Made by a program: the position numbers and the translations under genes. The notes under the pieces were generated by a model. The model was given only the letters and a program-made list of their open reading frames with translations, had not been told where the DNA came from and did no database searches. From contig CAXXMU010000006.1 of NCBI GenBank assembly GCA_963667785.2, forward strand, positions 928,001 through 992,000: 64,000 nucleotides of DNA, written 5' to 3'. Origin of the DNA: Alphaproteobacteria bacterium. GTDB taxonomy: Bacteria; Pseudomonadota; Alphaproteobacteria; UBA828. Positions 1,573 through 56,259 of the stretch are shown here, piece by piece. Positions within the stretch are counted from its first letter, which is position 1, and each line of letters opens with the position of its first letter.

Positions 1573-1615
1573 GGCGGGTTCGAGCGTCGCTCCGGCCGCC
1601 GCACGAGGAGCACGC

Positions 1616-10600: not shown

Positions 10601-11977
10601 GCCGTATCCCTCCAGCACCACGTGGGCGTTCGTGCCCGACCAGCCGAACCCGCTCACGCCGGCCCTCGGCGGACGGTCGGCGTCGTGCGGCCACGCCGTG
10701 GGGGTCGCCGTCACCTCGAGCGGCAGCCGCTCCCAATCGATTTCCGGTCTCGGGACCCGGAAATGGAGGTGCCTGGGAATCATCCCCCGGTTCATGGCTA
10801 GTACGGTCTTGATCACGCCGGCCACGCCGGCCGCCGCCTCGAGATGGCCGATGTTGGTCTTGACCGAACCGATCAGCAGGGGGCGATCCGCGTCGCGCCC
10901 GCGACCGTACGCCATGCCGGTTGCCTGCGCCTCGATCGGATCGCCCACATCTGTGCCCGTCCCGTGCGCTTCCACGTAGTCGATGTCGGCAGGCTGCAGC
11001 CCGGCCCGCCGCAGAGCCGCCTCGATGACCTTCTCTTGCGCCGGCCCGCTCGGGACCGTCAGGCCCGGGCTTGCCCCGTCCTGGTTCAGCGCCGAGCCGC
11101 GCACGACCGCCCAGATGCGGTCGCCGTCGGCCTCCGCCTCGGCCAGCCGCTTGAGCACCACGATGCCGCACCCCTCGCCGCGCACATAGCCGTTCGCGGC
11201 GGCGTCGAACGTGGCGCAGCGTCCGTCCGGCGACAGCATGCCGGCGTTGGCACGCATCTCCAGCAGTCGGCCCGAGAGGATCGCGTGCACGCCGCCGGCA
11301 AGCGCCAGGTCCGCCTCGCCCCGCTGCAGGCCGGTCACCGCCTGATGGATCGCGACCAGCGAGGACGAGCAGGCGGTGTCCAGCGCGAGCGCCGGGCCTT
11401 CCAGCCCGAGCGCGAAGGCGACCCTGCCGATCGCCGTGTTGAAGGAGGTGCCCGTGACGGAATAGAGGCTGACGGCGGGCTCGACCGGCTGGTCGGTGTC
11501 CAGGATCAGCCCGCGATACTCGTTGTTGCTGATCCCGGCATAGACGCCGGTGCGGCTGCCCTTCAGGCGGTCCGGATCCATCCCTGCGTCTTCGAGCGCG
11601 TGCCAGCAGGTCTCCAGCATCATTCGCTGCTGGGGGTCGAGCAGTTGCGCTTCGACCGGCGAGATGCGGAAGAAGGCGGCGTCAAACAGCTCGAGCTCGT
11701 CGAGATAGGCGCCGAACCGGCACGCCGGGGCCTGCGCGGCATCGGGGAACAGCGCGCCGATTCGCCCGACGCCGGAGCCGGGAACCCCTTCGATCACGCC
11801 GCTCTCGCCCGCCTCCAGCAAGCGCCAGAATGCGGAAATATCGTCCGCGCTGGGGAACCGGCACGCCATGCCGACGATCGCCACGGGCGAACCGGCCTCG
11901 GGGAATCCCGACTCGCGATCCTCGGGCCGGGCGTGCGCGTCGTCAGCGCGTCCGCCGCTCCCGTCTCGTTCCGTCAT
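1616..11977 (-). CDS. supA: Type I PKS, SupA-like (KS-AT-DH-cMT-ER-KR-ACP-KS-AT); likely methyl-branched fatty acid synthase
   Basis: KS1 DTACSSS/EAHGTGT/NIGHLE; AT GHSLG; DH HRVFGRLIAP..DGCFQ; MT VLEVGAGTG; ER HAGAGGVG; KR TGGLGGIG; ACP GMDSL; KS2 ELNCASS; degenerate AT2. The domain order matches the sponge-symbiont sup PKS. Confidence 0.9.
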   Translation of the reverse strand: MTERDGSGGRADDAHARPEDRESGFPEAGSPVAIVGMACRFPSADDISAFWRLLEAGESGVIEGVPGSGVGRIGALFPDAAQAPACRFGAYLDELELFDAAFFRISPVEAQLLDPQQRMMLETCWHALEDAGMDPDRLKGSRTGVYAGISNNEYRGLILDTDQPVEPAVSLYSVTGTSFNTAIGRVAFALGLEGPALALDTACSSSLVAIHQAVTGLQRGEADLALAGGVHAILSGRLLEMRANAGMLSPDGRCATFDAAANGYVRGEGCGIVVLKRLAEAEADGDRIWAVVRGSALNQDGASPGLTVPSGPAQEKVIEAALRRAGLQPADIDYVEAHGTGTDVGDPIEAQATGMAYGRGRDADRPLLIGSVKTNIGHLEAAAGVAGVIKTVLAMNRGMIPRHLHFRVPRPEIDWERLPLEVTATPTAWPHDADRPPRAGVSGFGWSGTNAHVVLEGYGAPNGAPPRPADGHEAVGAAQAVPISLPASVAGETTAEPAPAPRLTRVLPLSGKSDGALRALAGRYLAWLDEWAGVPAAGADALADMAWTAAAGRSHFSHRRGVVFQDDGSLRVGLAALQEGDEPAAPQTAARVAFAYTGQASQWPGMGAALYASEPVVRAVLDRCDALLAEDRAGASLLDVMFGRPGAVGDLDDPQWKQPAIYALECALAALWASIGIRPDVVIGHSLGEIAAAHTAGVFGLEEGLRFAAARGSLIGALPGEGAMAAVFAPASRIAPVLDEQNATSDGPDISIAADNGAHQVVSGPKTGIEALLARFEADEVRVARLRKSPAYHSAMIEPALGDLEAAISTIAFQPPSLTFVSNLTGRPLGEGEAPDAAYWRRQARETVAFRGCIETLAELGVDAVIEIGPHAVLGPMTTMAWPEAAGPAPVVLSSLVRPSKDEEPPAPGSGGGFADAVAGAYEAGLPLEFPGLFAGETRRRVALPGYPFQRERHWIEMPKRRRQASDHPLLGSRHESASGEIAFDTEIFPSDPAWLADHRVFGRLIAPGALYGAMAAAASLAEGSEAVVVDDFQMQSALVFPDEDAEDGAADAGRRVQVLLDGHEDGASRRVRILSRGEGEDGWTLHAEGRIPDGPPGPAPAAAPLDVEGLKAALSPVDLSGYYRAKASVGIDLGPSFRTIEALWARPGEAIAEVALPADLESGALDVHPLLLDGCFQVFGAARSADGGEEGITYLPFAWDGLRLPARLPERLICHVRMKEGPEGAAAEAENGDVPEVQAADLLLYEPDGAPIGVLAGFTVKRATRAALLAAVEGIDELLYEVVWRDAALAPGVLPADFLTAPSDVTAETDLFTAYLANEGVGADDRAALLADLEQLSHAYALATLDRLGWQREAGASVDSEDLRQRLKVGDEHVRLFRRLLEMQARTGVLTEEPDGAFVVAVGSEDPLPDGMPDDTETLAGRMAAQYAHGSNEIGLFRRSANALADVLRGEADALTLLFSSGEPTAADLYLKAPVARAANRMLADATATLLRDLPAGRRLRVLEVGAGTGSATAAVLPELPAGGYDFIYTDISAGFFSEAESRFGGAEAAIDYRVLDIEKDPLEQGFDAHGYDLVIASNVLHATRYLNETLAHCLALLAPSGQLVALENLRSQGWLDLTFGQLDGWWRFADDYRPHHALATPAVWRQALGDAGFGDVAILGFDESDPDANPDRGVIVAQGPAEVTEAPGVWVLAADRGGVADGLARELAAHNQRVVLAGDAPRGAAEDAASGVASESVEAENRDSWRALLDDLPADPPLAGVVHLAGLDGHGTQATTAEMAADAQHVAASALALTQALAESDLAPSKGLWFVTRGAQVLERERGGELAGATLWGLGKVAAREAPRLQPRMLDLDPADAWVPTDLATELLYPDDETHIAYRFGRRQCARLVRAAAVADRLALPEEPGWELAPDAGGSLDAIQVVPVPERPLEPGEVRAAIEAFGLNFRDVFIAIGLVDDFMGGEFCGRVLEVGEGVTSVAVGDRVVGMTFRNYGSETVTLEKMIVPAPAGFSVTELATIPTAFVSAALSFELSGLNAGDRVLVHAGAGGVGLAAIQLAQAAGAEVFATASARKRDYLRSLGVAHVFDSRTTAFGSDILEATGGVGVDMVLNSLTGEGYIEASLSCLAKAGRFVEMGRVDILSEDEMAALRPDVSYAILMIDVLKEEEPAKAGEILRRVMARLEAGELTPLLHARWPVAEAGSAMKCMQAARHIGKIIFTNSPLARGRLREDRSYLVTGGLGGIGIAVAGWLAERGAGAIVLNGRRAPEPEVEAAIEALRGQGAAVQVELADVTDAAALDAMLARMDADLPPLAGVIHSVGVLSDATIGNQSWETFETVLWPKMLGAWHLHRATAGRDLDMFVLFSSVAGVLGNPGQANHAAANAFLDQLAAHRQALGLPGQAIAWGAWSEIGEAEEQRERMTRRSVTGGIEWITPQQGLRAFDRLVREDATTGVVVARDWVAFGESLETRPPLLEDLLSDGADDGTDDASADDLLARLREAPAATREEVLASFLQGEVKAVLRLPTTPAPAVGFFDLGMDSLMAVELRNRLNRAFGGVYTASNTVVFDYPDIAALAAHLTGELGDIVGADAPAPQPAPAPVAAARRDGEGTADAIAIVGMACRFPGGPDLPSFWNQLDAGADAVTDERREAGPWEDFVEHLPAQYADFGRAGFVDGIDQFDARFFGISPIEARIMDPQQRMLLETTWQALEDAGIDPDGLKGSSTGVYAGVATSEYRDLMKGGDYGIGYLSTAASMAVGRLAFRFGLAGPTMPVELNCASSLVAVHQAVTSLRLGEADLALVGGVSAVLSAPITREMADLGLLSRDGVCKSFDAAADGFVRGEGCGMVVLKRLAEAEADGDRIWAVIRGSAVNQNGASAGATVPNGPAQERVIEQALSQAAISPAEVDYLEAHGAGSAFGDPIEVQAAAAVYGRGRDADRPLLIGSVKTNIGHLESAAGIAGLIKAVLAMTRGVIPQHLHLRTPSPLIEWERLPVRVTTEAADWPRAPDRPPRAGVSAFGISGVNAHVVLEGYADAEGAAGPRENGHLPAGPARPVAASLPESVAEPSPEDDASAGRDTRILPLSGKSEEAVRALAGRYLAWLDDHAGDLAADAAASGPLLSDMAWTAGVGRSHLACRAGVVFCDAASLRERLTAVAGTGGAAKTATVGKVAFVYPGEGSQWQGMGKALYESEPVVRAVLDRCEAALGEARGASLLDAMFARSGPANALEDPAWSRPATYALACALMALWSSVGIRPSAVAGEGAGEIAAAQAAGVLGLEDGLRLAAGDDPEAALEGVALAPPSIGLISGATGRPVEPGTAPDAAYWERQARERAPLERCAGALAALGADVVIELGPQAALGPALAGAWPASANAPTTSASLTPPPAGESGRSASGDTGFVAAVAAAYEAGLPVSFAGLFAGETRRRISLPGYPFQRRRHWLRKLGTQAAAPA

Positions 11978-12288
11978 CGCACTGCTCCCGCCATGAGGAG
12001 ATCGGCATGGTCATTCTAACCCGTGCACATGCACGAGCGGCATACACATACAAGAGCCTTCCCGCCAGATGCGGCACGCGGGCGGCACGAGGGGCTCACA
12101 CGTCTCCCTCGGACGCCTGCAAGCCGGGCGATGGTATCAGGCGGAAGGCGCCTCCCGCATCCGGGTCGCGTCGGGCCAGCGCTCCCGCAGGCACGCGCCT
12201 AGCCCGCTCAAAGCCGAGCGCTACAAGGGGGAGCCCGGTTCTTCGACCGGAAGGAATCGCCCGTTTGCAACCTGTTGGACGAGCAGGA

Positions 12289-12300: not shown

Positions 12301-12450
12301 TGTCCGCCGTTAGAACGTTTCGCTCTATCCCGGTATGTCTCCACAACACTCTGAAATAAGGCTTTTCATGAATGTGTCGCGTCTTGCACGGCCTCACGCC
12401 ATCCCGTACAATCCCGTCTAGTATAGGGAGTGGGAAAGAGGGTAATCGCC

Positions 12451-13686
12451 ATGGCGGACGGTCGAAAACCGAAGGGCAAGCACCCTGACAAGGCCCTGAG
12501 CCCGGCCTTCGTGCGCAAGGCCTCGAAGCCCGGACGCTACAACGACGGCAACGGGCTGTTCCTGAAGGTCGACCCCTCGGGCGCCAAGCGCTGGGGACAA
12601 AGGCTTGTCATCCACGGACGGCAGCGCACACTAGGACTTGGCGGGTGTGCGCTTGTGACTTTGGCCGAGGCGCGAGAGGCCGCACTGGCGAATCGCAAGA
12701 TCGCGCGGGCTGGCGGTGACCCGCTGGCGCAGCGTCGCCTCACGACCGATACCCCGACATTCGAGTCTGCAGCCGCGACCGTCATCGAGCTGCACCACCA
12801 CGGATGGCGCAACGAAAAGCACGCCGCCCAGTGGGAGGCCACGCTGCGCACCTACGTCCACCCGCACCTGGGCAAGCGATCCGTCGCAGACATCACGACC
12901 GCCGACGTCATGGCAGTCCTCATGCCGATCTGGAACGAGAAGCCCGAGACCGCCCGGCGCGTGCGCCAGCGCATCTCCACCGTGATGAAGTGGGCCGTGG
13001 CGCAGGGCTACCGGGGCGACAATCCTGCCGGCGACGCGATCGGCGCGGCTCTTCCCAAGCACAACGGCAAGACCAAGCGCCATCATCGAGCCCTGCCGCA
13101 CGGGGAGGTTGCGGCCGCCATCGAGGCGGTACGTGGCTCCAACGCCGGGAGGTCCGTAAAGCTCGCCTTCGAGTTTCTGGTGCTGACGGCCGCGCGCTCG
13201 GGCGAGGTCCGGCTCGCCACCTGGGACGAGATCGACAGGGACGCGAAGACCTGGACCGTACCGGCTTCACGCATGAAAGCCGGGCGCGAACATCGGGTGC
13301 CGCTGTCCGAACGCGCGCTCGCGATCCTCGATGAAGTGCAGGCGCTCTCCGACGGAAGCGGCCTCGTCTTTCCCGGCACCCGAACCGGCAAGCCGCTCTC
13401 GGACATGACGCTATCCAAGCTCATGCGCGACCTAGACCTCGACGCCGTGCCGCACGGCTTCAGATCGAGCTTCCGCGACTGGGCGGCCGAGTGCACTAAC
13501 GCCCCGCGCGACGTGATGGAGGCGGCTCTGGCCCACACGGTGCGTGACAAGGTCGAGGCCGCCTACAACCGCACCGACCTGTTCGAGCGTCGGCGCGCGC
13601 TCATGGATCAATGGGCCTCTTACCTCGACGGCGCCGCCGGCGCCGTCGTGACGATGGTGCGCCGTAAGGGACAGGCAAATGCGTGA
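12451..13686 (+). CDS. P4-like tyrosine integrase with arm-DNA-binding domain
   Basis: 'PGRYNDGNGLFLKV..GAKRW' N-terminus; 'LTAARSGEV', 'HRVPLS', 'PHGFRSSFRDWAAE', 'LAH..VEAAYNR' catalytic motifs. Confidence 0.95.
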   Translation: MADGRKPKGKHPDKALSPAFVRKASKPGRYNDGNGLFLKVDPSGAKRWGQRLVIHGRQRTLGLGGCALVTLAEAREAALANRKIARAGGDPLAQRRLTTDTPTFESAAATVIELHHHGWRNEKHAAQWEATLRTYVHPHLGKRSVADITTADVMAVLMPIWNEKPETARRVRQRISTVMKWAVAQGYRGDNPAGDAIGAALPKHNGKTKRHHRALPHGEVAAAIEAVRGSNAGRSVKLAFEFLVLTAARSGEVRLATWDEIDRDAKTWTVPASRMKAGREHRVPLSERALAILDEVQALSDGSGLVFPGTRTGKPLSDMTLSKLMRDLDLDAVPHGFRSSFRDWAAECTNAPRDVMEAALAHTVRDKVEAAYNRTDLFERRRALMDQWASYLDGAAGAVVTMVRRKGQANA

Positions 13687-14536
13687 ACGGGAGCGGAGAG
13701 CGGCACGGAAGCGACAGGACATGGAGGACGCCTATGCTGAGGCCTGTGGGATCGTCGACCACGTTCTGGCGCACCCGACGCTTCAAGACAGATTAGAGCT
13801 CAGTTTACGGTTCCCTGCTCTCTCTCCAGAGGAACAGCAGAGACAATTCCGCGACTTAGTAGAAGGAAATGCGAGGATCTGTCTGCATGGCCGACCTAAT
13901 GAGGGCATTCGGCCGGAACTCTGGTGCCACGCATTGATCGAGGAAGTTGACCTCCTGGCACATGCGCGACCCGCGCTGGAACGTGCCAAGGAGCTATACC
14001 GCGAAACAGGGACGCAAATGCCCATACGCTTGAGGGAGTGGTGTCCCGGTCCCTCCCCGTCCCGGCGGCGCGGGCCGCGTGGCCAAGCGCAAGGCATGAC
14101 AGCACTGCGCGACCACGTGCTCTCTATGCCAATCTCTGCGGTGAAATATGTTCAAGAACATAACCGTTGGCCCGAGCGTCTATCCCTTGGACGCGCGTTG
14201 TCGAAAGGAGAAGAGCCGACCGGTTACACGATCTGCGGCGCAGTTTGTGAAGTGGTCGCCGCACGCCATGGCGACTACAAAGTGTACCAGCGGGTCACCT
14301 ACCACATGGTTCGCAATGGCTGGAGACGGTACCAACGGAAAGATCGAACAAGTGTCGGGCGGCCAATCCTCCCGCCGCAAGGGCTGGCATCTGTCCTGAA
14401 CCCTCCCGACGGCACCGGTGAGCCCTTCCGGCGCTGGATGGGGGAGAGGACTGCACGCCACATCGCCGGTGAGCTCAATGCACCGACTGCTGACCCGATC
14501 CAAGACGGCTCGGCCCAAGATACCGACGCTGGCTGA
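13679..14536 (+). CDS. Hypothetical island protein
   Basis: 285-aa ORF overlapping the integrase stop; no recognisable motif. Confidence 0.55.
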   Translation: MRERERRAARKRQDMEDAYAEACGIVDHVLAHPTLQDRLELSLRFPALSPEEQQRQFRDLVEGNARICLHGRPNEGIRPELWCHALIEEVDLLAHARPALERAKELYRETGTQMPIRLREWCPGPSPSRRRGPRGQAQGMTALRDHVLSMPISAVKYVQEHNRWPERLSLGRALSKGEEPTGYTICGAVCEVVAARHGDYKVYQRVTYHMVRNGWRRYQRKDRTSVGRPILPPQGLASVLNPPDGTGEPFRRWMGERTARHIAGELNAPTADPIQDGSAQDTDAG

Positions 14537-14652
14537 CTGACAGGCGGGCAGTCTCAGCGAAAGCGCACCTGCAGTTATCTTTGCTTCACATGTGACCGTC
14601 GCAGGTTGCTACGCCTCCCTGTACGGCTTCACGCGCCACTGGAGGAAAGCGG

Positions 14653-14904
14653 ATGTCTGGCGACGATCAGCTCTTGCGGCTGCCCGCCGTGACCCAGCTC
14701 ACTGGTGTTTCTCGCAGCCGAATCTACTTGCTCATGCAATCGGGCGAGTTCCCGCGCTCGCTGAAGATTGGCCCCCGCGCACGCGCCTGGAGCAAGCGAG
14801 AGATTCTCGACTGGATGGCGCAACGCCAGCGAACGCGTCCCGGCGAGATGCCGGCAACACCCTCAACCGGTTCATGCGCCGCACGGGCGCGCTCGCCCTC
14901 TTGA
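14653..14904 (+). CDS. alpA: AlpA-family transcriptional regulator/excisionase
   Basis: 'LLRLPAVTQLTGVSRSRIYLLMQSGEFPRSLKIGPRARAW...ILDW'; GGAGG RBS. Confidence 0.9.
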   Translation: MSGDDQLLRLPAVTQLTGVSRSRIYLLMQSGEFPRSLKIGPRARAWSKREILDWMAQRQRTRPGEMPATPSTGSCAARARSPS

Positions 14905-15386
14905 GCTACAGGAGCGATGTGGACCGGCTCTTGTCCTGCGCTTTCGATCTGCTGCTGCTGGACGCTCTCCAGAGAGTCCCCTTCACCCCTCACGGCATGT
15001 GGACGCTGGACAGGTATCTCAACGGGACGGCGCTTAGACTGCGGAGCAAGCTGGCGTTCCGCATCAACTACGACAGGGCTCGGGCCAAGGCGGGTCGTTG
15101 AGAGGAAGCATTGGACCGATGCGGCGCCGCGCCGTACCGGGCAAGCGAAGGGCCGACGGGATGGATACACGTCAGGTATTTAGCCTGATCCCGATGGTGG
15201 GCAGGAGATGGCCTGAGTAGCCAGGAGATAGATCGTTTGGAGGGTGCCGTGCCGTCTTCTGATCGGGAGTGGCCTGGAGGGATTTCCTGTGCCTATTGTC
15301 CAAGTACCTATTGGGTACCTGGTGGACGAAGGCGAAGAAGAGTTGAGCAGATACAGGACGTGCTCTGTTCCAGAAAACTTCCTCTC

Positions 15387-16457
15387 TCAATCCTCTGTGT
15401 TTTGTGGGACTGGCGGCCGCTCTTGCTGGATCACATCGACACGATCCTTGAGTGCACCAAAATCACTAGTGGCATTCTCCAGCCGTTCTTCGAGGTTCTC
15501 TATTCGCTCTGTAATGCTTTGAGCATTCTCGGTCGCCTGCTGCCGATCCGCCTTCACCTGCTGATGAACCTCATTCGTCGTTGTTACCACCTGACTCACA
15601 AGGGAATAACCTTGAACAATAATCGTAGCAATTGCCGCAACCACCAATATCGCAGTTGCAACACCTATCCAAGTGTAAAGTTTTCTGAATCGGTCGGTAG
15701 TGTCGCGTGATTTTTCGACAGAATCTCTAGCTTCTTCTGCCCCTTTTCGAGCTGTTTCAGCAGCGTTTCTGGTTTCATCCAAGGCTCCATGGAAAGCACT
15801 CTGTACTCCGCCTTGGGCGGTTACTCCGGATTTCAGAAAGTACGCAAGCGGATCGTCAAGGTCTTTTGCGTTGGGAAATGCTTTCAGATTCTCAGGTCTC
15901 CCTACACCCTCCTTATTATGCTGCTTCCAATATTCGCTTTCGGATAGTTTTGTAAATTCCACCCAAATAATCCCATCTCCACCACAAATTTCATAATTGT
16001 TATTTGTGAGGTTATGCAGCGGAATCAGTAGACTTCCCGAAAATCCAGAATCTACTAGTGGACCAGTTCCCAATAACAGACCCTTATGTACATGACGAAT
16101 GTGTAAGTTGAAACGCGCAGCGATATACTCCGGAAGAAACAATTGTTCTGCCATCCACAAATAAGTTATAGAGTTGCGGTGTAGTATAGTGGGTTTATCT
16201 TTCACTATTTCTCTACAACGGGGCTTCAATTGTCCTTCATCAGTGACAATCCAGTCATAAAGCTTGCCTAGAAACCGCATCTCGTATGACGCAGGCTTGA
16301 GAAGATCAGAGTCGAACGTCGCTTTGTCGAGAAGACATCCAATGTCGACATATTTCTTGATGTCAGCAGAATTCAGCAGCGCCGGAGCTATGTCTTGTGA
16401 ATAGGGATCATAGGCGTAGTTTTTGTTTTTCCGCCATTGTTGATGTGTTCTAGTCAT
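15387..16457 (-). CDS. dCTP-deaminase/dUTPase-fold protein with coiled coil, transmembrane helix and second coiled coil
   Basis: 'LLNSADI', 'KPASYEMR', 'LPEYIAARF', 'GPLVDSGFSGSLLIPLHNLT'; TM 'LYTWIGVATAILVVAAIATIIVQGY'; visibly AT-richer than the host genes. Confidence 0.8.
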   Translation of the reverse strand: MTRTHQQWRKNKNYAYDPYSQDIAPALLNSADIKKYVDIGCLLDKATFDSDLLKPASYEMRFLGKLYDWIVTDEGQLKPRCREIVKDKPTILHRNSITYLWMAEQLFLPEYIAARFNLHIRHVHKGLLLGTGPLVDSGFSGSLLIPLHNLTNNNYEICGGDGIIWVEFTKLSESEYWKQHNKEGVGRPENLKAFPNAKDLDDPLAYFLKSGVTAQGGVQSAFHGALDETRNAAETARKGAEEARDSVEKSRDTTDRFRKLYTWIGVATAILVVAAIATIIVQGYSLVSQVVTTTNEVHQQVKADRQQATENAQSITERIENLEERLENATSDFGALKDRVDVIQQERPPVPQNTED

Positions 16458-16490
16458 TCTGTAGTCCTTCCGACGACGATTATGCTAACA

Positions 16491-17555
16491 CTAATTCTGG
16501 TCGCTTTTCTGCGTGAACGGCTCGGTAAACCATCCGGATTGGGGACGGTCGATAATGCGGCTAGGGCCTGATCCTACATAGTTGATTTTCTGTCCCAATT
16601 GAGATTCGAGAAGCGAAACGCATTTGCCTGCTCGAGAGCTGATAGTAGCGGACTCGTGAATCGCATAGTCAAAATAGTCTACGTGATTGAGAAAAATCAT
16701 GTTTGGAGAGTTCGCCCGAAGTGCCCGGAGCACGACCTCGTCATGAAACTCAGCGACTCGGCGGGGTCGCCCAGTAACTGTAGTGAACTCTGTCAGGTTG
16801 ACGTTGGCTCCGCTGCTGCGTGTGATTGACTCCCATGTGGTCTCAAGAGGGAGAGGACCAGAATTTCCGTGCACACGGATGGGAAATGAGCGGATGACCA
16901 GGGCAACGCAGTCGACAAGACGTGGGCTCAGTCCCGCCTCGGACAAAGCTCCTGCCGCAGTTGTGTCGCGGCTAGTTGAATATGGGTAGTGCCCGCCGTG
17001 CAGAATTGATAGCCCGAAGCCTTGGGTGCCTTCAATCATGACACGTTGTCCGTCTTCGAGGGCGACGGCCAGGACGTCGTCTAGGTCAGGACGAACGAAT
17101 TCACGAAGGCACTCAATGGTACCGGCAAACGTGATCGACGATCTCCGCATCGCTCGTTGCGCCACGGCCCCACCCACTCCCTGTCCCGTGGATGCTATTC
17201 CTTCCAGCAAGCCTGCGGCGCGCTCATCTGCTCTCATCGAATCGTCCAGCACGACGGCCGACGGATGAATCAACAAGCGGTCTTTCGTGAGGCCAGTTTC
17301 TTCCATTTCGCGCATGAGAATGGTGGAATCGAGGTAGGCACCCGCAGGAACGATACCGATAACGTCGTCGGTCAGGATTGGTGTGGGAAGATGCTGAAGA
17401 ACAATGCGACGTCCGTCCTCGACCACAGTGTGACCCGAGTTCGGTCCTCCTACGCGAATCGCGTATCGCGGTCGTTGCAGGCGCGCCAGCCAGTGTGCGA
17501 CCTTGCCCTTGCCTTCCGAACCGTATTGGCCACCGACTACTATGGTTACCGGCAT
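16491..17555 (-). CDS. Adenylosuccinate synthetase paralogue, PurZ0/PurZ-like
   Basis: 'GGQYGSEGKGK', 'GGPNSGHT', 'IEGTQG', 'YPYSTSRDTT', 'FPIRV', 'TTVTGRPRRV', 'NHVDY'; 354-aa short (archaeal/phage-type) form. Confidence 0.85.
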   Translation of the reverse strand: MPVTIVVGGQYGSEGKGKVAHWLARLQRPRYAIRVGGPNSGHTVVEDGRRIVLQHLPTPILTDDVIGIVPAGAYLDSTILMREMEETGLTKDRLLIHPSAVVLDDSMRADERAAGLLEGIASTGQGVGGAVAQRAMRRSSITFAGTIECLREFVRPDLDDVLAVALEDGQRVMIEGTQGFGLSILHGGHYPYSTSRDTTAAGALSEAGLSPRLVDCVALVIRSFPIRVHGNSGPLPLETTWESITRSSGANVNLTEFTTVTGRPRRVAEFHDEVVLRALRANSPNMIFLNHVDYFDYAIHESATISSRAGKCVSLLESQLGQKINYVGSGPSRIIDRPQSGWFTEPFTQKSDQN

Positions 17556-19756
17556 GCTAAGCGTTCACCTATTGTGTTTCGCAGGATGGTCTCCAGGTCT
17601 TGAATGGTGCCGTTGTTGTCGAGTGTAGAGTCTGCTAAGCTCCGCATGACTTGCACGTTCTGCTCAACCGGGTGGGTGTCAGCACGACGGAAGGCGTCTT
17701 CCGATGCATCTGCCTCCGAAGTGTATCGTCGGGCACGAAGGGCCAAGGTCGCTTCGACGTGAAGGTGGAGGGCCGTGGTTCCCCATCTTTCGCGCAAGAA
17801 GGCTCTATCCTCAGGGTGTCTCAACCCGTCAACCACAACCCGTGAGTAGTGTTCGACGCACGCGGCCAGCTTGTTTTGGAGTTGTCGTTGTCCGAAGCGG
17901 CTGCGATGAGCTTCCTCGCCGAATTCCTGAAGGGCGTCCCTCGTGACCGGGGTTCCACGTGCGCGAAGCTCTCTCGCAATGATTTCGCTGAATCGGCAAT
18001 ATTTAAATCCCATGCATTCCAATAATCTCGCTGCAGTGGTCTTCCCTGCCGCGATCGGTCCGCTAAGGCCAACCGCGATGGTGGATCGGAGATCAGGCGA
18101 GCGACGGTTGACCGTTGGCACGACCAAGTAGTCCTCCTCTGTGCTTCCGAGTGCTTCCCAGTAGCCTGCGAGCATGAACTGACCAACCAGGGCGGATGTC
18201 GTTGCGTCGAGTTCGTCATGAGAAACCCTGAGTTCGGTGCCAAGGTCAGCGTAACCGAAGCGGCGCAAACCTTCGGTGAGGTGTTTCAGGCTTGTCTTTT
18301 TTCTAGGGATCCCCAAGATGTCCTGGGCAGCTCCTGGGTAACTCTCAATGACGGGGATGCCAAGTTTCCTCAATCGAGTCGCTAAGTCGACGCCACGCCT
18401 AGTTAATCTCTGCATACTGGGAAGCAGCGCTGGATAAACATGAACGCCCCTACTGCGAAGTATGCGTTCTGCTTCTCGAACGATTCCAAACTCGCTGCGG
18501 CCAGGATCGTCGTCAAATTCCGAGATTCGTCCCTCTGGAAGTGAGAGTGGGGAGTCGATTGAAACGAGAAAGGGTTCGGTGTCCAAGGTTCTCTTGATTA
18601 AGTCGGCATCTGATGCGACCACATTCATCGTCAGATGTTGGCCCGTCAACGCCGCCCATCCCGACTTGCGTTTCTCGCTGCCGGTCAAATCAAGCCCGAC
18701 GATGGTGATGTCATCCAACATTGGTGCGTTCTCACGCAGCTCTGAATAAGTGAGTCTCGGACCGACGGTACCAGTGTATGGACTGATGGATATGGCATTG
18801 CCGTCGCTGACGGCTTCAGCATGCGGGAAGTAGATGCTCGATCGGGGGAAGAGGCCGCTGTTTGAAGAGAGCATGACGGTGGGATGTACTACCCGGCGGA
18901 TGACCTCCTCGAAGAGAAATTTCATGCCTTCGATATCGGCATGATTGTAGCGTACCAGTTCGCGTAAGGCGTTCAGGTCGCCTTCCTTGTAGTCGAACCA
19001 TAAGGATACAGCTTCGGCTCCTGTGATTCCGCTGAGTGACCCTTCGCGGGTAAGTCCGATCTCTTGCTCGATTTTCTTCTGCCCTCCGGTCAAGCCGACC
19101 CGCTTGGCCAAGTAGCGAAGGTCGACATGACACAGGCCGGACCAATCCGTCTCGAAGTGCTTGGTGAGAAACGGGAGGTCGAACAAGGACCCGTTGAAGG
19201 TCACCACGATGGGATGCTCGTGTAGATCATGTTCGAGCTGAGCGACCTGGCTGGGGTCGACCAGTACCGTGTAAGTGCCGCCGACGGACCAGCCAACTAG
19301 GGTGACTTGATCGTAGTGAGGGCTCAGGCCCGTGCTCTCGATGTCGAGGAACACAGAGCTTTCGGGGAAGGTGGCGGCGATACGGTAGAACTCACGCTTG
19401 GGCAGTTTTCGCGCGAAGAACTTGATGTCACGAGTGGCGAGAGCCTCCTCGGAAGCCTCCACGGCGGACTGCAGCGCACTGGCGCTCTTGCGGTAGAGGT
19501 CGAGCTGGATCGGTGTGTGGCGGATGAGCTCCATCCAATCGGAGACGCCCTGGGCCCATAGCCTAGCCTCCGCCGCCGCGGAGATTCTCGGAAGGTGCAG
19601 AAATGTGCGACGGAGCAACTTTGCTTCGGGCATGGGCAGGCAGCGACCCGTCGTTGGGACCTCGGCACCGAGAACTTGTAGCACAAAGCGTGCCAGAGCA
19701 ATGTGGTGTGGTTCGGCGCCTAGTACTGTGGTAATTAGGTTAACGAATTCAGACAC
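17546..19756 (-). CDS. Fusion of YprB-like RNase H/DEDD exonuclease, DUF429 domain and P-loop nucleotide kinase
   Basis: 'FLDIESTGL','VTFNGSLFDLPFL','YNHADI'; 'VGLDLTG','IDSPLSLP','IESYPGAA','HDELDA'; 'GLSGPIAAGKTT','VVDGLRHPED','DNNGT'. True start may be ATG 19633. Overlaps the PurZ-like start. Confidence 0.8.
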   Translation of the reverse strand: MSEFVNLITTVLGAEPHHIALARFVLQVLGAEVPTTGRCLPMPEAKLLRRTFLHLPRISAAAEARLWAQGVSDWMELIRHTPIQLDLYRKSASALQSAVEASEEALATRDIKFFARKLPKREFYRIAATFPESSVFLDIESTGLSPHYDQVTLVGWSVGGTYTVLVDPSQVAQLEHDLHEHPIVVTFNGSLFDLPFLTKHFETDWSGLCHVDLRYLAKRVGLTGGQKKIEQEIGLTREGSLSGITGAEAVSLWFDYKEGDLNALRELVRYNHADIEGMKFLFEEVIRRVVHPTVMLSSNSGLFPRSSIYFPHAEAVSDGNAISISPYTGTVGPRLTYSELRENAPMLDDITIVGLDLTGSEKRKSGWAALTGQHLTMNVVASDADLIKRTLDTEPFLVSIDSPLSLPEGRISEFDDDPGRSEFGIVREAERILRSRGVHVYPALLPSMQRLTRRGVDLATRLRKLGIPVIESYPGAAQDILGIPRKKTSLKHLTEGLRRFGYADLGTELRVSHDELDATTSALVGQFMLAGYWEALGSTEEDYLVVPTVNRRSPDLRSTIAVGLSGPIAAGKTTAARLLECMGFKYCRFSEIIARELRARGTPVTRDALQEFGEEAHRSRFGQRQLQNKLAACVEHYSRVVVDGLRHPEDRAFLRERWGTTALHLHVEATLALRARRYTSEADASEDAFRRADTHPVEQNVQVMRSLADSTLDNNGTIQDLETILRNTIGERLACR

Positions 19757-20221
19757 TTATCGTTCAAGCCAGTATCGACTTGGAGCAAGGACTGGCATGA
19801 GGCGGCCAAGGGAGCATGGCCGAGGATGAAATAACTGGAGAGTGTGGAAGAGCCGGAACGCGACCAGGAGGGCTAGAAACGTCTTGACGCTAGGACATCT
19901 GTCCTGTCGAACGGTGCATGATCGGACCGGACGTGAGCGGGAGAACTGGGCTAGGCTGTCATGGAGGTCTGAGCTGGGGATAGGGCGGTAGATGTTGCTA
20001 TTTTGTTCTATTTGAGTGAGAATGGTGTTCGATCGGGTGATTGAAGACCAAGCCCTTGGGGATAGTGGAGATGGGTCTAACAGGGCGGAAGTGATCGCGT
20101 TTCCCGCCACGGGTGCCGGCAGCAATGCCGATTCGCGCCGATCGTCTCGAGAAACGGCGGGCGGGGGTTCTCCGAGGAGAAGTAGAACGGTTCGCTCTAG
20201 AGTCGCAGCAGGTGGAAGCGG

Positions 20222-23161
20222 ATGACAGAGCCGATCCTGAATGAGGTGCTGGAGGCTACCGGCTATCTATCTGACGGTGAGCCGGCACACGGTGTGTACC
20301 TGAGTGGGGAAGCCGATGGGCTACCCAGATTCCGCGATTTTTCGCCCGATGCGCTGTGGCGGAGCGAGTCGGCACTGACCGTCTATTTCAAGTACGAAAG
20401 TGAAGATCCTTCCGAGGAACAGATCGCAGCGTGGCAGCGCGAAATATGGAATCACGGGTTCGCGCCGCTTCTGTGGGTGATTTCGCCCGAGAGCATTGGA
20501 GTCTACAACGGCTTCAGCCGGCCTCGAGAAGCTGGAAACGCGACGGTGCATCTGCTGGACACGTTCGGTCGGATCGAGGAGGAGCTCGACAGGCTCGATG
20601 CACTCGCCGGTCGGCTTGCAATGGAGACGGGTGAGTTCTGGCGCCGGGCGCGGTCTGTGCACCGTAGAACGTGCGTCGACCGGCAGCTCCTGTCGGATTT
20701 GGGCTCACTCGAGGGGGACCTCGAGTCGGAGGACCTAGATCGTCCCGGTGCGCAGGGTCTGATTGGACGTTCGATATTTGCCCAGTATCTGATCGACCGG
20801 GGAATCGTTACGCGCGAATTCTTGGAAAGCGAGTACGGTCACGGGACGCTCTCTGACATACTACGGGATCGCCAAGCTACGAAAGAACTATTCGACTGGC
20901 TTCGCGATACCTTCAACGGCGATATGTTTCCTGCGGAGAGTTCGGGCCTACCGGGAACGCGACATTTGCAGCGGGTCGCAGACTTCCTTGACGCTGTGGA
21001 TCCAGAGTCGGGACAGAGAACATTCTTTCCATATCAGTTCGACGTGATACCGGTCGAGTTGATCAGCTCGATCTACGAACAGTTCGCGAATTCCGATTCG
21101 GAGCCCAACGATGATGAGAGTGAGGAGGATGTCCATTATACGCGACTGTCGCTTGTTTCTCTGGTCTTGGACGAGATCGCCGACGGATTGGGTGGACGTG
21201 AAACAGTCCTTGACCTGAGCTGCGGGTCGGGGGTGTTTCTGGTGGAAGCCCTGCGAAGGCTGGTCGTGCACCGCTGCAACGGGAAAAGGCCAAACCGCAG
21301 GGTGATCCGTTCTGTGTTGTACGATCAAATCTATGGCGTCGACATTAGCGAGGCCGCGGTGCGCGTCGCCGCGTTCAGTCTCTACTTGGCCGCGCTGGAA
21401 CTCGACCCGAATCCGAGACCGCCGAAGGAGCTTAGGTTCAGGCCTCTCATCGGTAGAACTCTGTTTATCGCCGATTCTCGAAACGTAGAAGAAACGCCGG
21501 AGGGCAGGCGGGCTTTGACGGAAGGGGGCGAACGAAGGGCATTCGATGTCATCGTTGGGAACCCGCCGTGGAGCTACCGAGGCAAAAAGGCCCGGGCAGC
21601 TGCAAATTCGACAAGCGAATCGAGAGGCATCCGCGCGCCACGGGGCGTGAGCCTGGACTTCGTCTTGAGGGCCTTGGATTTTGCAACTCCTGATACGCGA
21701 TTGGGCATGGTCTTGAGCGGCGTCCAGTTCTTCAGCCGCAGCGGAACGGGAGCGGCCGTGTTGCGGGGCCTTTTGGAGGAGCTTTCTCCGGTAACATTGG
21801 TGAACCTGTCGTACCAGTCGAGCTGGCTGTTTCCGCGGGGTAGCCTGCCAGCAATGGTCCTCTTGGCGAGGCACCGGCCTTCCACACATGACGCAATAAC
21901 AGCTGTGCAGGTGCCATGGTCGCCGGCGGGAGAGCAAAGCCATACATTTGAGATTGCGCGCGAGGACATCGTAACGCTGCCGATCTCCGATTGGATGCGT
22001 AAGCCGGAGTGCCTGAAGACCGCCTTTTTCGGGCTGGGTCGTGATTTGGCGCTGTTGGACAGGCTGACTGATCGCTATCGGTCACTAGGAGAGCAACTAC
22101 AGGCTCTGGATACCGAGTTGCGCGGCGGCCTCAAGTATGGAGACCGCAGCCGCGATGCGCGCTTTCTTCAGGATCTTCCTGTGCTGACCAAGACGGACGT
22201 GCGGCCATTTGTCGTGTCGGACGGCCTGCATCAATTCGATAGCGATTGGGCAGAGCGTCCGCGGAGCCGTGAAACTTATCGGGCGCCGTTGGTCTTGGTC
22301 CGGGAATTTGTTCAGGCAGGGGGTCGTGCAGTGTGCGCGGTGGCTGAGCGGGATGTTGTGTTCACCGATGCCCTCTTGGGTGCGACGATCCCGCGCGAGA
22401 AAGTTGGGATAGCCTATTTGATCGCGTCAATACTAAGTTCCTCGCTCGCATCGTGGTTCTTCTTGATGACCGGTTCGACCTTCGGGCTGTCGATGCGACG
22501 TTTGCTACTCCGGGACATCGAACACCTCCCAATTCCGTCTCTGGACAGGGCGTGTCGGTCGACGGCTGGGCAGCGGCTGATCGAACTTGGTCGACGGCGC
22601 AGAACGGATCGGCTGGCCGGTCGGGACTGGCGAGAGATTGATGAGGCGGTATTTGATCTCTACGAACTGGACGAGGCGGATCGCATCGTCGCTCGTGATG
22701 GGCTGGTCCGGGCGGGATGGCAGTGGAAATCTGGCAGGGTTGCATCGGCAAGGGCGGCCGAAATGGATGCGGACATGCTTATCTATGCCCAAACGTTCCT
22801 GTCAGCGGTCGATGCTTGGCTTGCCGAGGGAAAGCGACGCCGCATGAGGGGCGAATTATTTGATCTTTCCGCGAGCGCGCCGTACCGCGTGGTTCGCTTT
22901 ATCCTGGAAGATGAGATCGGTCCATCGACGACGGGCCTGGTAAGGACGGAAGGCAGACTGCGGGATGTGCTCGACCGGATCGGAGAACGGTTGAATGTGC
23001 GCATCGGAGAGGCCTTGGTGGGTCAACGCGCGTTGCGGGTGTATGGCCCGAACGAGGTTGTAATCATTAAGCCGGCTGCTCGCCGACACTGGATGGGCGT
23101 GTCGGCGCTGGATGATGCCGATGCCGTAGTCAGCGACAGCCTTTCAGGACTTGCGGGGTGA
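20222..23161 (+). CDS. Large N6-adenine DNA methyltransferase (Eco57I/type IIG-like)
   Basis: 'IPVELISSIYEQF', motif I 'DLSCGSGVFL', 'YGVDIS', motif IV 'IVGNPPW', C-terminal TRD-like region. Confidence 0.9.
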   Translation: MTEPILNEVLEATGYLSDGEPAHGVYLSGEADGLPRFRDFSPDALWRSESALTVYFKYESEDPSEEQIAAWQREIWNHGFAPLLWVISPESIGVYNGFSRPREAGNATVHLLDTFGRIEEELDRLDALAGRLAMETGEFWRRARSVHRRTCVDRQLLSDLGSLEGDLESEDLDRPGAQGLIGRSIFAQYLIDRGIVTREFLESEYGHGTLSDILRDRQATKELFDWLRDTFNGDMFPAESSGLPGTRHLQRVADFLDAVDPESGQRTFFPYQFDVIPVELISSIYEQFANSDSEPNDDESEEDVHYTRLSLVSLVLDEIADGLGGRETVLDLSCGSGVFLVEALRRLVVHRCNGKRPNRRVIRSVLYDQIYGVDISEAAVRVAAFSLYLAALELDPNPRPPKELRFRPLIGRTLFIADSRNVEETPEGRRALTEGGERRAFDVIVGNPPWSYRGKKARAAANSTSESRGIRAPRGVSLDFVLRALDFATPDTRLGMVLSGVQFFSRSGTGAAVLRGLLEELSPVTLVNLSYQSSWLFPRGSLPAMVLLARHRPSTHDAITAVQVPWSPAGEQSHTFEIAREDIVTLPISDWMRKPECLKTAFFGLGRDLALLDRLTDRYRSLGEQLQALDTELRGGLKYGDRSRDARFLQDLPVLTKTDVRPFVVSDGLHQFDSDWAERPRSRETYRAPLVLVREFVQAGGRAVCAVAERDVVFTDALLGATIPREKVGIAYLIASILSSSLASWFFLMTGSTFGLSMRRLLLRDIEHLPIPSLDRACRSTAGQRLIELGRRRRTDRLAGRDWREIDEAVFDLYELDEADRIVARDGLVRAGWQWKSGRVASARAAEMDADMLIYAQTFLSAVDAWLAEGKRRRMRGELFDLSASAPYRVVRFILEDEIGPSTTGLVRTEGRLRDVLDRIGERLNVRIGEALVGQRALRVYGPNEVVIIKPAARRHWMGVSALDDADAVVSDSLSGLAG

Positions 23162-25533: not shown

Positions 25534-25578
25534 CTCATAACCTGAAGGTCGAAGGTTCAAGTCCTGCCCCCGCAACCA
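25534..25578 (+). tRNA. 3' half of tRNA-Met(CAT), initiator-like; att fragment, not a complete tRNA
   Basis: CTCATAA anticodon loop, GGTTCAAGTCC T-arm, CCCCGCAACCA end; the upstream sequence does not form D or acceptor arms. Confidence 0.85.
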
Positions 25579-27216
25579 CCGAGACCGACATCTCCGGCAT
25601 GGGGATGTCGGTCTTCGTGTTTTCGCGCCCGTTTCCAGCCCATTCGAGGATCGCACCAAGATCGCCGTGCAGCACGGCGTCCATCTCGGCCCATTTCTCG
25701 CTCGGGGTGAGCACGATGCGCTCGATCAGGCCGCGGATGGCCGCCGCCGCCGCGTCGCGGTCCTCCGGATGGTCCAGCGCTTCGGCAAGCCGCGCCACCT
25801 TGCGCCGGTAGACGTCCGCGATGTTGGGGTGGATGTCCGGGAGGTCGGCGGGCGCCGCTGACAGTCTCTCGTTCAGCTCGTCCTGGCGCGCCTCCAGCTC
25901 GCGCAGCCGGTCCACCATACCCCGGACGTAGCCGCCGTCCTCGATGACGGCGATCATGGCGGCGATCTTCGTCTCGACCTGGGCCAACTCCTTCCGGTCG
26001 CTCGCGCCCGAGGCGCGGCGCTCCCGGTTGATCCGGTTGGTCTCCTCGGCCCAGGCCCGCATCGCCTCGGCGGCGGCCTCCGGCGCCATCAACCGGTCCT
26101 TCGGCCCGGACAGCACGCGCTCTTCGATCACGGAGCGGCGGATGCCGCGGCCGTTCGAGCATGTGCCGGTCATGATGTGGTTGGAGCAGCCGTAGCGGTC
26201 CTGGCCGCGCATGGAATAGGGGCCGCCGCAGACGCCGCATTCGAGCAGGCCCGAGAGCAGGTGGCGCGGCCGGTGGGCGCCGTTCAGCCGGTAGGCCCGC
26301 ACGCTTTGCGTGGCCTCGATGACGGTGGCGTATTGCACCGTGATCTCGCCCTGGCGGTCCTTCACCGCCTTCCAGAGATCGTCGTCGACGATGCGGAGTT
26401 CGGGCACATCCGCGACGATCCACTCCTCCGGCGGGTTGATCCGCGAGACCCGCTTGCCGGTCTCCGGGTTCTTGACGTAGCGCAGCCGGTTCCACACCAG
26501 CCGGCCGATATAGAGCTCGTTGTTGATGAGCCCCGCGCCCCGCTTCGCGTGGCCCCGGATGGTGGTATCCATCCAGAGCTTGCCCGAGGGGCCGGGGACG
26601 CCTTCCCCGTTCAGCCGCCGCGCGATCGCGCGCGGGCTGGCGCCGTCGGCAAACTCCCGGAACACCCGGCGCACGATCTCGGCCTCGGCTTCGTTGACCG
26701 TGCGCCCGCCGCGGACCGGATCGCCCGCGCCGTCGAACGACTTCACCACGTCGTAGCCGTAGCAGAGACCGCCGCCCGACTTGCGGCCTCGACCCGGCCG
26801 CGAAGCCCCCGGTGCGTCTTCGCCGCGAGGTCCTTCAGGAACAGCGCGTTCATCGTGCCCTTGAGCCCGACATGGAGCTCGCTGATCTCGCCCTCGGCCA
26901 GCGTCACCACCGTCACCCCGGCGAAGCGCAGGTGCTTGTAGAGCGTCGCCACGTCCGCCTGGTCGCGGCTCACCCGGTCGAGGGCCTCGGCGAGCAGGAT
27001 CTCGAACATCCCCCGCCGCGCGTCCTCCAGCAGCGCCTGGATGCCGGGACGCAGGATCATGCTGTCGCCCGAGATGGCGGAGTCCTTGTAGGCACCCGCG
27101 ATCTTCCAGCCCTCGCGCCCCGCGCGCTCGCGGCAGACCCGGAACTGGTCCTCGATCGACGCCGCCCGCTGCTGGTCCGAGGAGTAGCGGGCGTAGAGCG
27201 CGCAGCGCAGGGTCAT
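25535..27216 (-). pseudogene. Large serine recombinase, frameshifted near 26785
   Basis: 'ALYARYSSDQQ..SIEDQ', 'EALDRVSRD', Zn ribbon 'LSGLLECGVCGG..YGC..C'. The frame breaks at GRVEA/(G)KSGGGLCYGY by a 1-bp loss, either real or a sequencing error. Confidence 0.88.
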
Positions 27217-27229
27217 GGCTTCCGGTCTC

Positions 27230-27394
27230 CTACTTCTCGCCGGCATCCTTCTCCGGCACGTTGTCGTTGGCGGCGTCGAGCCTCTCCAGCTCCTCGCGCG
27301 CGATGCGCCGGCCGATGAGCCGGGCCAGCGTCAGCACGGCGGTATCGACCCGTGTTTCCGCCTCGCCATTGTCGTTGGCCGCCACGCCGCGCAT
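27230..27394 (-). CDS. Small hypothetical protein upstream of the recombinase
   Basis: 'VLTLARLIGRRIARE' peptide directly before the recombinase start. Confidence 0.55.
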   Translation of the reverse strand: MRGVAANDNGEAETRVDTAVLTLARLIGRRIAREELERLDAANDNVPEKDAGEK

Positions 27395-51070: not shown

Positions 51071-51072
51071 GC

Positions 51073-56258: not shown

Positions 56259-56259
56259 A

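Follow-up and report, generated by a model that had tools for sequence, protein, structure and literature searches.

A widespread bacterial cassette with a PurZ-like synthetase and a membrane-tethered dUTPase-fold protein is a candidate deoxypurine-conversion pathway

We analysed a 64,000-nucleotide stretch of DNA (the window, to which coordinates refer unless a locus is named) from an alphaproteobacterium of the GTDB lineage UBA828 (GenBank assembly GCA_963667785.2, contig CAXXMU010000006.1, positions 928,001 to 992,000), and found in it, at positions 15387–19756, a minus-strand operon of three genes, named A, B and C, that belongs to an undescribed bacterial cassette. Gene A codes for a fusion of two nuclease-type domains with a kinase, gene B for a homologue of adenylosuccinate synthetase with signature residues of the phage enzyme PurZ, and gene C for a membrane-tethered protein of the dUTPase fold. 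Our preferred reading, to which we give a probability of roughly 0.4, is that the cassette encodes a deoxypurine-conversion pathway complete in itself, comparable to the phage cluster for 2-aminoadenine (Z), and that it drains and converts dG and dA nucleotides, probably as a defence. With the predicted function, chemistry of a familiar type would operate in a biological context that is new for it. Taken together, the observations of the initial annotation of this DNA were confirmed, while its interpretation was partly supported.

The open reading frame (ORF) calls placed all three genes in the same direction: gene A at 17546–19756 (736 amino acids counted from a GTG), gene B at 16491–17555 (354 amino acids) and gene C at 15387–16457 (356 amino acids), with an overlap of 10 bp between A and B (17546–17555) and a spacing of 33 bp between B and C (16458–16490). 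Homologues of A are about 695 amino acids long, align to residues 42–736 of the window protein and have a first residue that matches M42, so the true start of A is likely to be at 19633 rather than at the GTG at 19756, giving a protein of about 695 amino acids. Measured in 1 kb windows, the GC content was 0.49–0.59 across 15001–20000, as compared with 0.69–0.76 across 1001–12000, to the left of the island that carries the operon; for the three genes themselves it was 0.49–0.58, as compared with about 0.72. The co-directional, tightly coupled and lower-GC layout that the initial annotation had described was thus borne out, as were all of its domain calls (exonuclease–DUF429–kinase, PurZ0-like synthetase and membrane-anchored dUTPase-fold protein). 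A scan of 14500–20400 for promoters and terminators gave no more sites than were found in shuffled sequences. The window operon represents the three-gene form of the cassette, and tblastn gave no match in the window at E≤1e-3 to gene D, the fourth gene described below.

The product of gene B is a short, archaeal-type adenylosuccinate synthetase homologue (Pfam Adenylsucc_synt, E 4e-43), whose best solved relative was Pyrococcus horikoshii PurA, at 172 bits, with the PurZ0 of the Archimedes phage in second place at 149 bits; its identity to any phage PurZ or PurZ0 was 36 % at most. At the position of PurA Asp13 (S23 of the S-2L enzyme), Ser occurred in 63 of the 73 aligned B sequences, including the window copy (Ser13), and Gly in another 8; two sequences had a gap here, and none had Asp. 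According to the accessible part of PMC12884076, this Asp is kept in 99 % of PurA sequences and is Ser in 147 of 147 phage PurZ, and the accessible part of PMC8342488 describes the Ser as underlying the guanine specificity of PurZ. The position of S-2L T273, a PurZ-specific Thr that contacts the substrate, was Thr in 69 B sequences and Ser in the other 4, residues V241, R240, R280 and R146 were invariant, an ‘NSG’ insertion was common to B and PurZ0, and an aspartate-site motif of the ‘TGRxRR’ type was present. Judged by these residues, B carries the guanine-specificity signature of PurZ, and a corresponding activity is predicted. At the donor-base position, 72 of the 73 sequences had the Asp typical of PurA rather than the Gln or Asn of the ATP-using PurZ enzymes (Q308 in S-2L, N297 in phiVC8); retention of this Asp suggests GTP as the donor. 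PurZ0 reportedly uses GTP as well, a result said to be that of Tong et al. in 2023. On donor preference, the accessible part of PMC12884076 states that PurZ0 and PurZ prefer ATP and GTP, respectively, which is the opposite of what the accessible parts of PMC8342488 and 10.1101/2025.10.22.683976 give for PurZ (ATP/dATP). It is likewise the opposite of the GTP use reported for PurZ0.

When B proteins were compared with curated models, they fell below the cut-offs. Against the PurZ model NF038379 (cut-off 300 bits) the window protein scored 218 and four other B proteins 224–240, so that none of the five passed, while S-2L PurZ (350), Vibrio phage H1 PurZ (397) and Archimedes phage PurZ0 (325) did. 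Against the archaeal PurA model NF003295 (cut-off 368) the window protein scored 253 and the five B proteins as a set 242–270, all below the cut-off, and against the bacterial PurA model TIGR00184 the window protein reached 181 bits versus a cut-off of 396. The host genome has a canonical PurA elsewhere (565 bits, contig C2), with Asp at position 13 and Gly at the T273 position. We also considered B as the housekeeping purA and rejected this assignment, since a canonical PurA is present elsewhere, B lacks Asp13 and it scores below both PurA cut-offs. In a quick tree of B, phage PurZ and PurZ0 and the genome's own PurA, which included no archaeal PurA and left out the two loci with a B shorter than 300 amino acids (L025 and L075), the phage sequences formed long branches inside the B family, without starred support. 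The B gene tree disagreed with taxonomy. None of the families in PADLOC-DB v2.0.0, the defence-model set used, matched B.

The C protein consists of a DCD/dUTPase-fold N-terminal domain (residues 28–175; 15933–16376, minus strand, from the alignment and a profile-to-PDB comparison), a coiled coil, one predicted transmembrane (TM) helix (residues 263–285; 15603–15671, minus strand, with a Kyte–Doolittle 19-residue mean of 2.6) and a second coiled coil. The window protein scored 26.6 bits against the DCD family PF22769, whose cut-off is 27, and six homologues of a divergent C subtype scored 49–58 bits against the same family. The structural model had the DCD/dUTPase fold (Foldseek E 2.5e-10, target TM-score (TMt) 0.75–0.81), and in profile comparison the nearest solved relatives were the monofunctional archaeal dUTPases 8y1w and 9ln0 from Thermococcus/Pyrococcus (E 2e-17). 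R115 (the motif-II Arg) and D136 (the motif-III Asp) were invariant, and so was Pro146 in 19 of 19 sequences. The ‘LIPL’ of C aligned with the ‘TLEL’ of the deaminases from M. tuberculosis and B. halodurans and with the ‘TLML’ of archaeal dUTPases. C was also tried as a dCTP deaminase, an assignment that we rejected because the deaminases have their catalytic Glu in a ‘TLEL’ strand that comes after the ‘DPGF.G’ motif, and C has Pro146 there instead. C is accordingly best described as a dUTPase-type member of the dUTPase/DCD superfamily, for which a trimer and enzymatic activity are predicted.

At least one TM helix was predicted in 64 of 67 C homologues. The C profile matched the Dut-like gp55 of the Archimedes phage with an hhalign probability of 85 %, and it gave no match to gp53 of the same phage. 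PADLOC returned only coiled-coil noise for C (JetC and LmuB, E>7e-4). A complex prediction for B with the N-terminal domain of C (residues 1–215) gave scores of 0.00 and 0.00, which is no verdict, and it was used neither way. The nearest solved relatives of B, C and the kinase of A were all archaeal (Pyrococcus PurA, Thermococcus/Pyrococcus dUTPase and a Sulfolobus adenylate-kinase-related protein), a kinship that echoes the proposed archaeal origin of PurZ.

The A protein is a fusion of a helix-hairpin-helix-like N-terminus, a DEDD exonuclease, a DUF429 domain and a nucleoside-monophosphate-type kinase. The N-terminal region (residues 42–134; 19355–19633, minus strand) is helical in the model and has an ‘HLPxI’ motif in the alignment consensus; its putative helix-hairpin-helix-like character is a motif-based reading with no family match. 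The DEDD-type 3'-5' exonuclease (residues 135–284; 18905–19354, minus strand) matched RNase_H_2 (PF13482, E 1.2e-27), with D138, E140, D193, H272 and D274 invariant in 16 of 16 sequences, and showed weak profile similarity to the dinucleotide-degrading diDNase (E 6e-4 and 4e-3) and to NanoRNase C (E 0.1–0.2). The DUF429 domain, of RNase-H-like fold (residues ~347–550; 18107–18718, minus strand), was recognized by PF04250 on homologues and by an ESM-Atlas score of 0.97 to DUF429 clusters, whereas a Pfam scan of the window copy gave no match to it at E≤0.01; D356, D401, D514 and D517 were invariant in the 16 aligned homologues, whose source name is ‘DUF429 domain-containing protein’. The P-loop kinase (residues 560–733; 17558–18079, minus strand) matched CoaE/AAA_18 at 560–730, had the Sulfolobus adenylate-kinase-related protein 3lw7 as its best Foldseek match (TMt 0.83), and kept the Walker and lid residues G571, K572, T573, D643, R646, R674 and R677 in 16 of 16 sequences. 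PADLOC matches to A were partial, comprising the kinase-like part of the dCTPase model (E 1.8e-8), a weak match of the DUF429 domain to PDC-S44 (E 8e-6) and one to DEDDh (E 0.004); the kinase also gave a weak match to the NCBIfam antiphage_deaminase model (E 0.006). The check for a named system proposed in the initial annotation therefore came out as it had anticipated, with no PADLOC v2 model for B or C and weak, partial matches for A. On a Dyadobacter plasmid (NZ_CP099631.1, 4450–6612 of the fetched locus L087), a stand-alone DUF429 protein with 51 % identity to the middle domain of A lies directly after a 493-residue protein annotated as a diadenylate cyclase, a pair that hints that DUF429 proteins work with nucleotide-signal enzymes.

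A relative of A was encoded by 351 of 413 pattern matches among 185,579 one-per-species genomes. The carriers belonged to Pseudomonadota, Thermodesulfobacteriota, Acidobacteriota, Bacteroidota, Cyanobacteriota, Planctomycetota, Verrucomicrobiota, Binatota and others, and at least 120 clusters of A homologues were found at 53–91 % identity. The locus counts that follow refer to the 80 best loci of the 351 matches, which were fetched, and the gene-order counts to the 69 of them with at least 3.6 kb downstream. B adjoined A in 77 of the 80 loci, two of the three exceptions being contig ends, and tblastn found A, B and C together in 60. The gene orders were ABCD in 32 loci, ABCx in 21, ABxC in 5, ADCB in 1 and other in 10, the last comprising AB[AAA]x, ABDx, ABxx and Axxx in two loci each and AxCx and AxBx in one each. 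Conservation of the trio, which the initial annotation had asked about, was thus found in about 59 of the 69 loci with room for it. Flanking genes were not conserved, and no polymerase or HD hydrolase was conserved across the 80 loci. Taken together, these results indicate that the cassette is widespread but patchy, moves horizontally and comprises three or four genes.

The fourth gene, D, codes for a dNK-family kinase (PF01712) of about 200 amino acids and directly followed C in 39 of the 80 loci (for example, L002:11253-11870 and L007:11079-11693); the three D proteins tested all passed the PF01712 gathering cut-off of 27, with 78–96 bits. A search for longer B relatives gave nine protein clusters of 636–716 amino acids in which B is fused to C and the TM helix is retained. 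When ten loci that appeared to lack C were scanned, six had a divergent, TM-bearing gene of the DCD fold in its place, two had a 708-residue AAA ATPase, one had an IS1595 transposase, and one had no family there and C one gene further on. The protein of about 708 amino acids, with a C-terminal classic AAA domain (PF00004), is unrelated to C and held its place in three Acidobacteriota loci (L023:10122-12248, L033:10163-12292 and L027:9998-11842). We considered these three proteins as carriers of a hidden DCD domain and rejected this at an hhalign probability of 0.1 %.

These variants bear on whether the cassette makes a signal. The initial annotation had proposed that C senses the product of B and triggers membrane damage; more generally, B and the kinases could make a base-modified deoxynucleotide messenger that C binds through its dUTPase-fold pocket and answers by killing through its membrane helix. 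The membrane anchor of C and the exchange of the third gene for an AAA ATPase, which recalls the effectors of CBASS-type systems, keep this model alive; moreover, Kongming, as outlined in the accessible part of its description, uses dITP that is read by a non-canonical NTP pyrophosphatase, and the DUF429 relative of the A middle domain adjoins a diadenylate cyclase on the Dyadobacter plasmid. The nine clusters, however, fuse the supposed maker of the signal to its supposed receptor, the invariant Asp136 and Arg115 and the kinship with active archaeal dUTPases point to an enzyme, and a chain with a single TM helix is poorly suited to pore formation. The accessible part of PMC12884076 reports that 98 of 98 PurZ0 phages pair PurZ0 with DutZ, a dUTPase-fold enzyme that converts dNTP to dNMP, and this pairing, like the optional dNK gene, suits a pathway better. 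We consequently regard signalling through C as rather improbable, and the sensor role proposed in the initial annotation was not supported. Its other proposal, a self-contained deoxynucleotide pathway, fits the evidence and was strengthened by the optional fourth gene of other loci; deoxynucleotide modules with intact catalytic-type residues, the PurZ signature of B, a C fold as in PurZ0 phages and the B–C fusions all argue for a pathway over a messenger–receptor pair.

In such a deoxypurine-conversion pathway, A would bind DNA and digest it to deoxynucleoside monophosphates (dNMPs) through its DEDD exonuclease and RNase-H-like DUF429 domains, and its kinase domain would phosphorylate the (modified) dNMP. 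C, as a trimeric dUTPase-type pyrophosphatase at the inner face of the membrane, would cut dGTP and/or dATP back to monophosphates, a service that PurZ0 and PurZ receive from DutZ, MazZ and DatZ, and B would join dGMP to aspartate, probably with GTP as the donor, to give N6-succino-2-amino-dAMP. The host PurB, the kinase of A, the optional gene D (absent here) and the host Ndk could then lead on to dZTP. Once switched on, the cassette would drain the dG and dA pools and replace them with a 2-aminoadenine-type nucleotide, by which phage DNA synthesis would be stalled or corrupted; since this would also be toxic to the cell, the outcome might be abortive or bacteriostatic. The accessible part of PMC8342488 reports that expression of a Z-cluster is toxic in E. 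coli and that host polymerases put Z into DNA, from which it follows that an inducible version could stop phage replication. Another use of the same enzymes would be an antiviral analogue, in which the decisive product is the bulky succinyl intermediate rather than dZTP, or a di- or triphosphate that the kinases of A and D form from this intermediate, and acts as an inhibitor of phage polymerase or of purine enzymes, much as viperin products do. The cassette has one or two kinases of its own and no lyase, and B retains the aspartate-site motif, both of which would suit this proposal, but host PurB is expected to cleave the adduct, as the accessible parts of PMC8342488 and 10.1101/2025.10.22.683976 describe for phages, and we see only a slim chance of it.

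The substrates, products and trigger of the pathway, the reason for the membrane tether and the defence role itself are all things that we infer from sequence and gene context. A defence role is suggested by the context, that is, the island in the window, the scattered restriction-modification (RM), helicase, RmrA and dGTPase neighbours, the patchy distribution and the lack of a housekeeping need. A more specific version, in which inducible enzymes tethered to the membrane degrade DNA, remove dGTP and dATP and turn dGMP into 2-aminoadenine nucleotides, leaving replicating phage DNA starved or wrongly built, and in which a bacterial, ultimately archaeal-like PurZ-type lineage was the pool for phage PurZ0 and PurZ, or the reverse, is doubtful in our estimation.

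Several results weigh against deoxypurine conversion as a defence. The proposed substrates are read from few residues; B has the PurA-like Asp at the donor-base position, none of the five B proteins passed the PurZ model, and the B tree does not place B relative to archaeal PurA. A purely metabolic role would leave the membrane anchor found in nearly all C homologues unexplained, as well as the replacement of C by an AAA protein in three loci. PurB, DNA polymerase and an HD-type dATPase are not linked to the cassette. The 143 immediate neighbours in 79 loci (one of the 80 contigs held nothing past gene A) were heterogeneous and included housekeeping genes, with RM methylases, helicases, RmrA and dGTPase at 2–4 occurrences each, and enrichment in defence islands is therefore not established. 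Finally, Z-substituted DNA resists many restriction enzymes, according to the accessible part of PMC12944874, and such DNA would work against the host's own RM systems.

Two gene families recurred near the cassette. A protein of about 240 amino acids with the invariant pattern ‘YxGDxxDxxK...FxDPDNGxE’ was encoded beside or inside it in 8 of the 80 loci (L074:9842-10669 and L023:4991-5719, both on the minus strand, and L073, L078, L080, L027, L033 and L061); neither Pfam nor the named Atlas clusters offered a match, and the protein was unrelated to RlmJ (hhalign 0.25 %). A gene for an RlmJ/RsmJ-family methyltransferase (PF04378) adjoined or lay near the cassette in 5 of the 80 loci (L014:5993-6838, L016:11840-12682, L064, L075 and L077).

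Gene A gave no match in 50,697 phage records and none in IMG/VR. This bears on a reading of the operon as the remnant of a Z-genome prophage, for which the resemblance of B to PurZ0 and an adjacent dUTPase-fold gene, as in PurZ0 phages, could be cited. Set against it are the lack of any phage or IMG/VR relative of A, on which we rejected this candidate, the low identity of B to phage PurZ and PurZ0, an A-B-C(-D) order kept over many phyla with unrelated flanks, and the lack of any phage structural or polymerase family among the 20 neighbouring ORFs scanned with Pfam (8 of which had no family at all). The last result agrees with what the initial annotation had noted, and a prophage origin is largely refuted and has next to no probability.

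The window operon sits between a P4-type tyrosine integrase (12430–13686, plus strand; Pfam Phage_int_M, Arm-DNA-bind_3 and Phage_integrase), located at the GC step that marks the low-GC boundary, and a type IIG RM enzyme (20222–23161, plus strand; Pfam Eco57I/N6_Mtase, PADLOC REase_MTase_IIG E 3.6e-45), which is divergent from A. The low-GC region extends to about 58 kb of the window. It includes a large serine recombinase in two minus-strand ORFs with a 7 bp overlap (resolvase domain at 26743–27246, recombinase/Zn-ribbon part at 25535–26749), whose split (25535–27246) may reflect a frameshift or a pseudogene, and a minus-strand gene for an 884-residue protein kinase (28501–31155) similar to two PADLOC models, mad6 and PD-T4-6. 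A TrwC relaxase/helicase (37724–40762, minus strand) marks the element as conjugative or mobilisable. A second defence block at 42768–57767 codes for a DruE-like helicase of 1839 amino acids, a DpdE/DrmD-like SNF2 helicase (PADLOC DpdE E 3.5e-179), a DrmMI-like methylase, and PtuA (E 3.4e-92) with an HNH protein, which are Septu-like. In the high-GC host part, directly to the left of the integrase, lies an ORF of 3453 amino acids (1616–11977, minus strand). No convincing direct repeats that could serve as att sites were found across 11800–60500, and the ends of the island are therefore undefined.

The integrase, relaxase, serine recombinase and defence genes together indicate that the element is integrative, rich in defence genes and probably mobilisable, in agreement with the integrase-island setting proposed in the initial annotation. 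A was present in only 1 of 49 species genomes of the host order and in none of 20 other genomes of the genus, which indicates a recent acquisition. A mobile carrier also suggests a role outside immunity, as a salvage or DNA-modification module that recycles DNA breakdown products or puts 2-aminoadenine into the carrier DNA, for example to escape restriction after transfer. The integrase and TrwC relaxase would suit such a module, neighbours in other genomes are often ordinary genes, and published abstracts describe Z as shielding phage DNA from restriction. The cassette is nevertheless rare and patchy, A gave no full-length match among 72,556 plasmids, no polymerase or dATP-excluding HD enzyme is linked to it, the window element is loaded with defence genes, and the toxicity of a Z-cluster in E. 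coli stated in the accessible part of PMC8342488 also argues against a non-immune role, which we consider unlikely.

So far, PurZ-type enzymes have been regarded as peculiar to phages, with remote roots in archaea. The B family adds a third lineage with PurZ signature residues, present in hundreds of bacterial species and, like phage PurZ0, tied to a dUTPase-fold protein, and here it occurs in a cellular, horizontally moving cassette that is missing from the phage collections searched. If Z-type nucleotides are made, non-canonical DNA bases would be produced by cells as well as by viruses, and if the defence reading is true, a purine-conversion mechanism would join dCTP deamination, dGTP hydrolysis and dITP signalling in nucleotide-based immunity. 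The cassette also offers candidate enzymes for modified dNTPs, namely a PurZ homologue of the GTP type, a dNTPase tethered to the membrane and a nuclease–kinase fusion, and as a small clonable operon it makes bacterial 2-aminoadenine production a directly testable question.

We found no description in the literature of the cassette, or of a defence role for any gene resembling PurA or PurZ, except for one sentence in 10.64898/2026.01.15.699771, whose accessible part mentions, in a predicted anti-phage context, an operon that contains an adenylosuccinate synthetase, serves ‘synthesis of modified bases’ and is linked to PUA-like anti-phage modules. That operon is described there, in the same part, without gene composition, and PUA, calcineurin and HAD were absent from the 25 commonest Pfam families of the 143 cassette neighbours. 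Among solved proteins, the archaeal short PurA, DCD-type dUTPase and adenylate-kinase-related kinase are the nearest relatives of B, C and the A kinase, respectively; unlike them, B has Ser or Gly for Asp13 and scores 242–270 bits versus a cut-off of 368, C adds a coiled coil and a TM helix, and the A kinase is fused to two nuclease-type domains.

In biological logic the cassette is nearest to the dNTP-depletion defences and to Kongming, with no defining protein in common. Each of the former (dCTP deaminase, which joins a kinase-like domain to a deaminase, and dGTPase) is encoded by one operon in a defence island and works on the dNTP pool, and the A kinase matches the kinase-like part of the anti-phage PADLOC dCTPase model; in contrast, the cassette has no cytidine-deaminase domain, C lacks the Glu of the DCD deaminases, the proposed targets are purines and a synthetase step is added. 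Like Kongming (KomABC, dITP signalling), as outlined in the accessible part of its description, the cassette would combine nucleotide kinases with a deoxynucleotide whose base is modified and with a protein that has the fold of an NTP pyrophosphatase. Kongming is described there as consisting of an adenosine deaminase (KomA), a HAM1-type pyrophosphatase (KomB) and a SIR2 protein (KomC), whereas the Pfam and NCBIfam matches of the three cassette proteins included no family of deaminases, HAM1 or SIR2; there was no PADLOC or NCBIfam match to Kom proteins, Kongming being later than PADLOC v2 (2023). The cassette also has its own kinases rather than those of the phage, and the B–C fusions argue against a messenger–receptor pair.

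Closest in chemistry are the phage Z-clusters, that is, PurZ0 with DutZ (and DmtZ and DUF5664) in actinophages and PurZ with MazZ and DatZ in S-2L and phiVC8-type phages. Unlike these, the cassette is chromosomal in bacteria and absent from the phage collections searched, its synthetase falls below the PurZ cut-off and, like PurA, has Asp at the donor-base site, and its dUTPase-fold partner is of the DCD/archaeal type and membrane-tethered; it adds a nuclease–nuclease–kinase fusion and often a dNK kinase, and is without DpoZ or PrimPol, HD dATPase and MazG. Like these, it sets a short PurA homologue with Ser for Asp13 and the PurZ-type Thr beside a dUTPase-fold protein, host enzymes would be expected to finish the pathway, and its predicted logic runs from dNTP through dNMP to a succinyl adduct.

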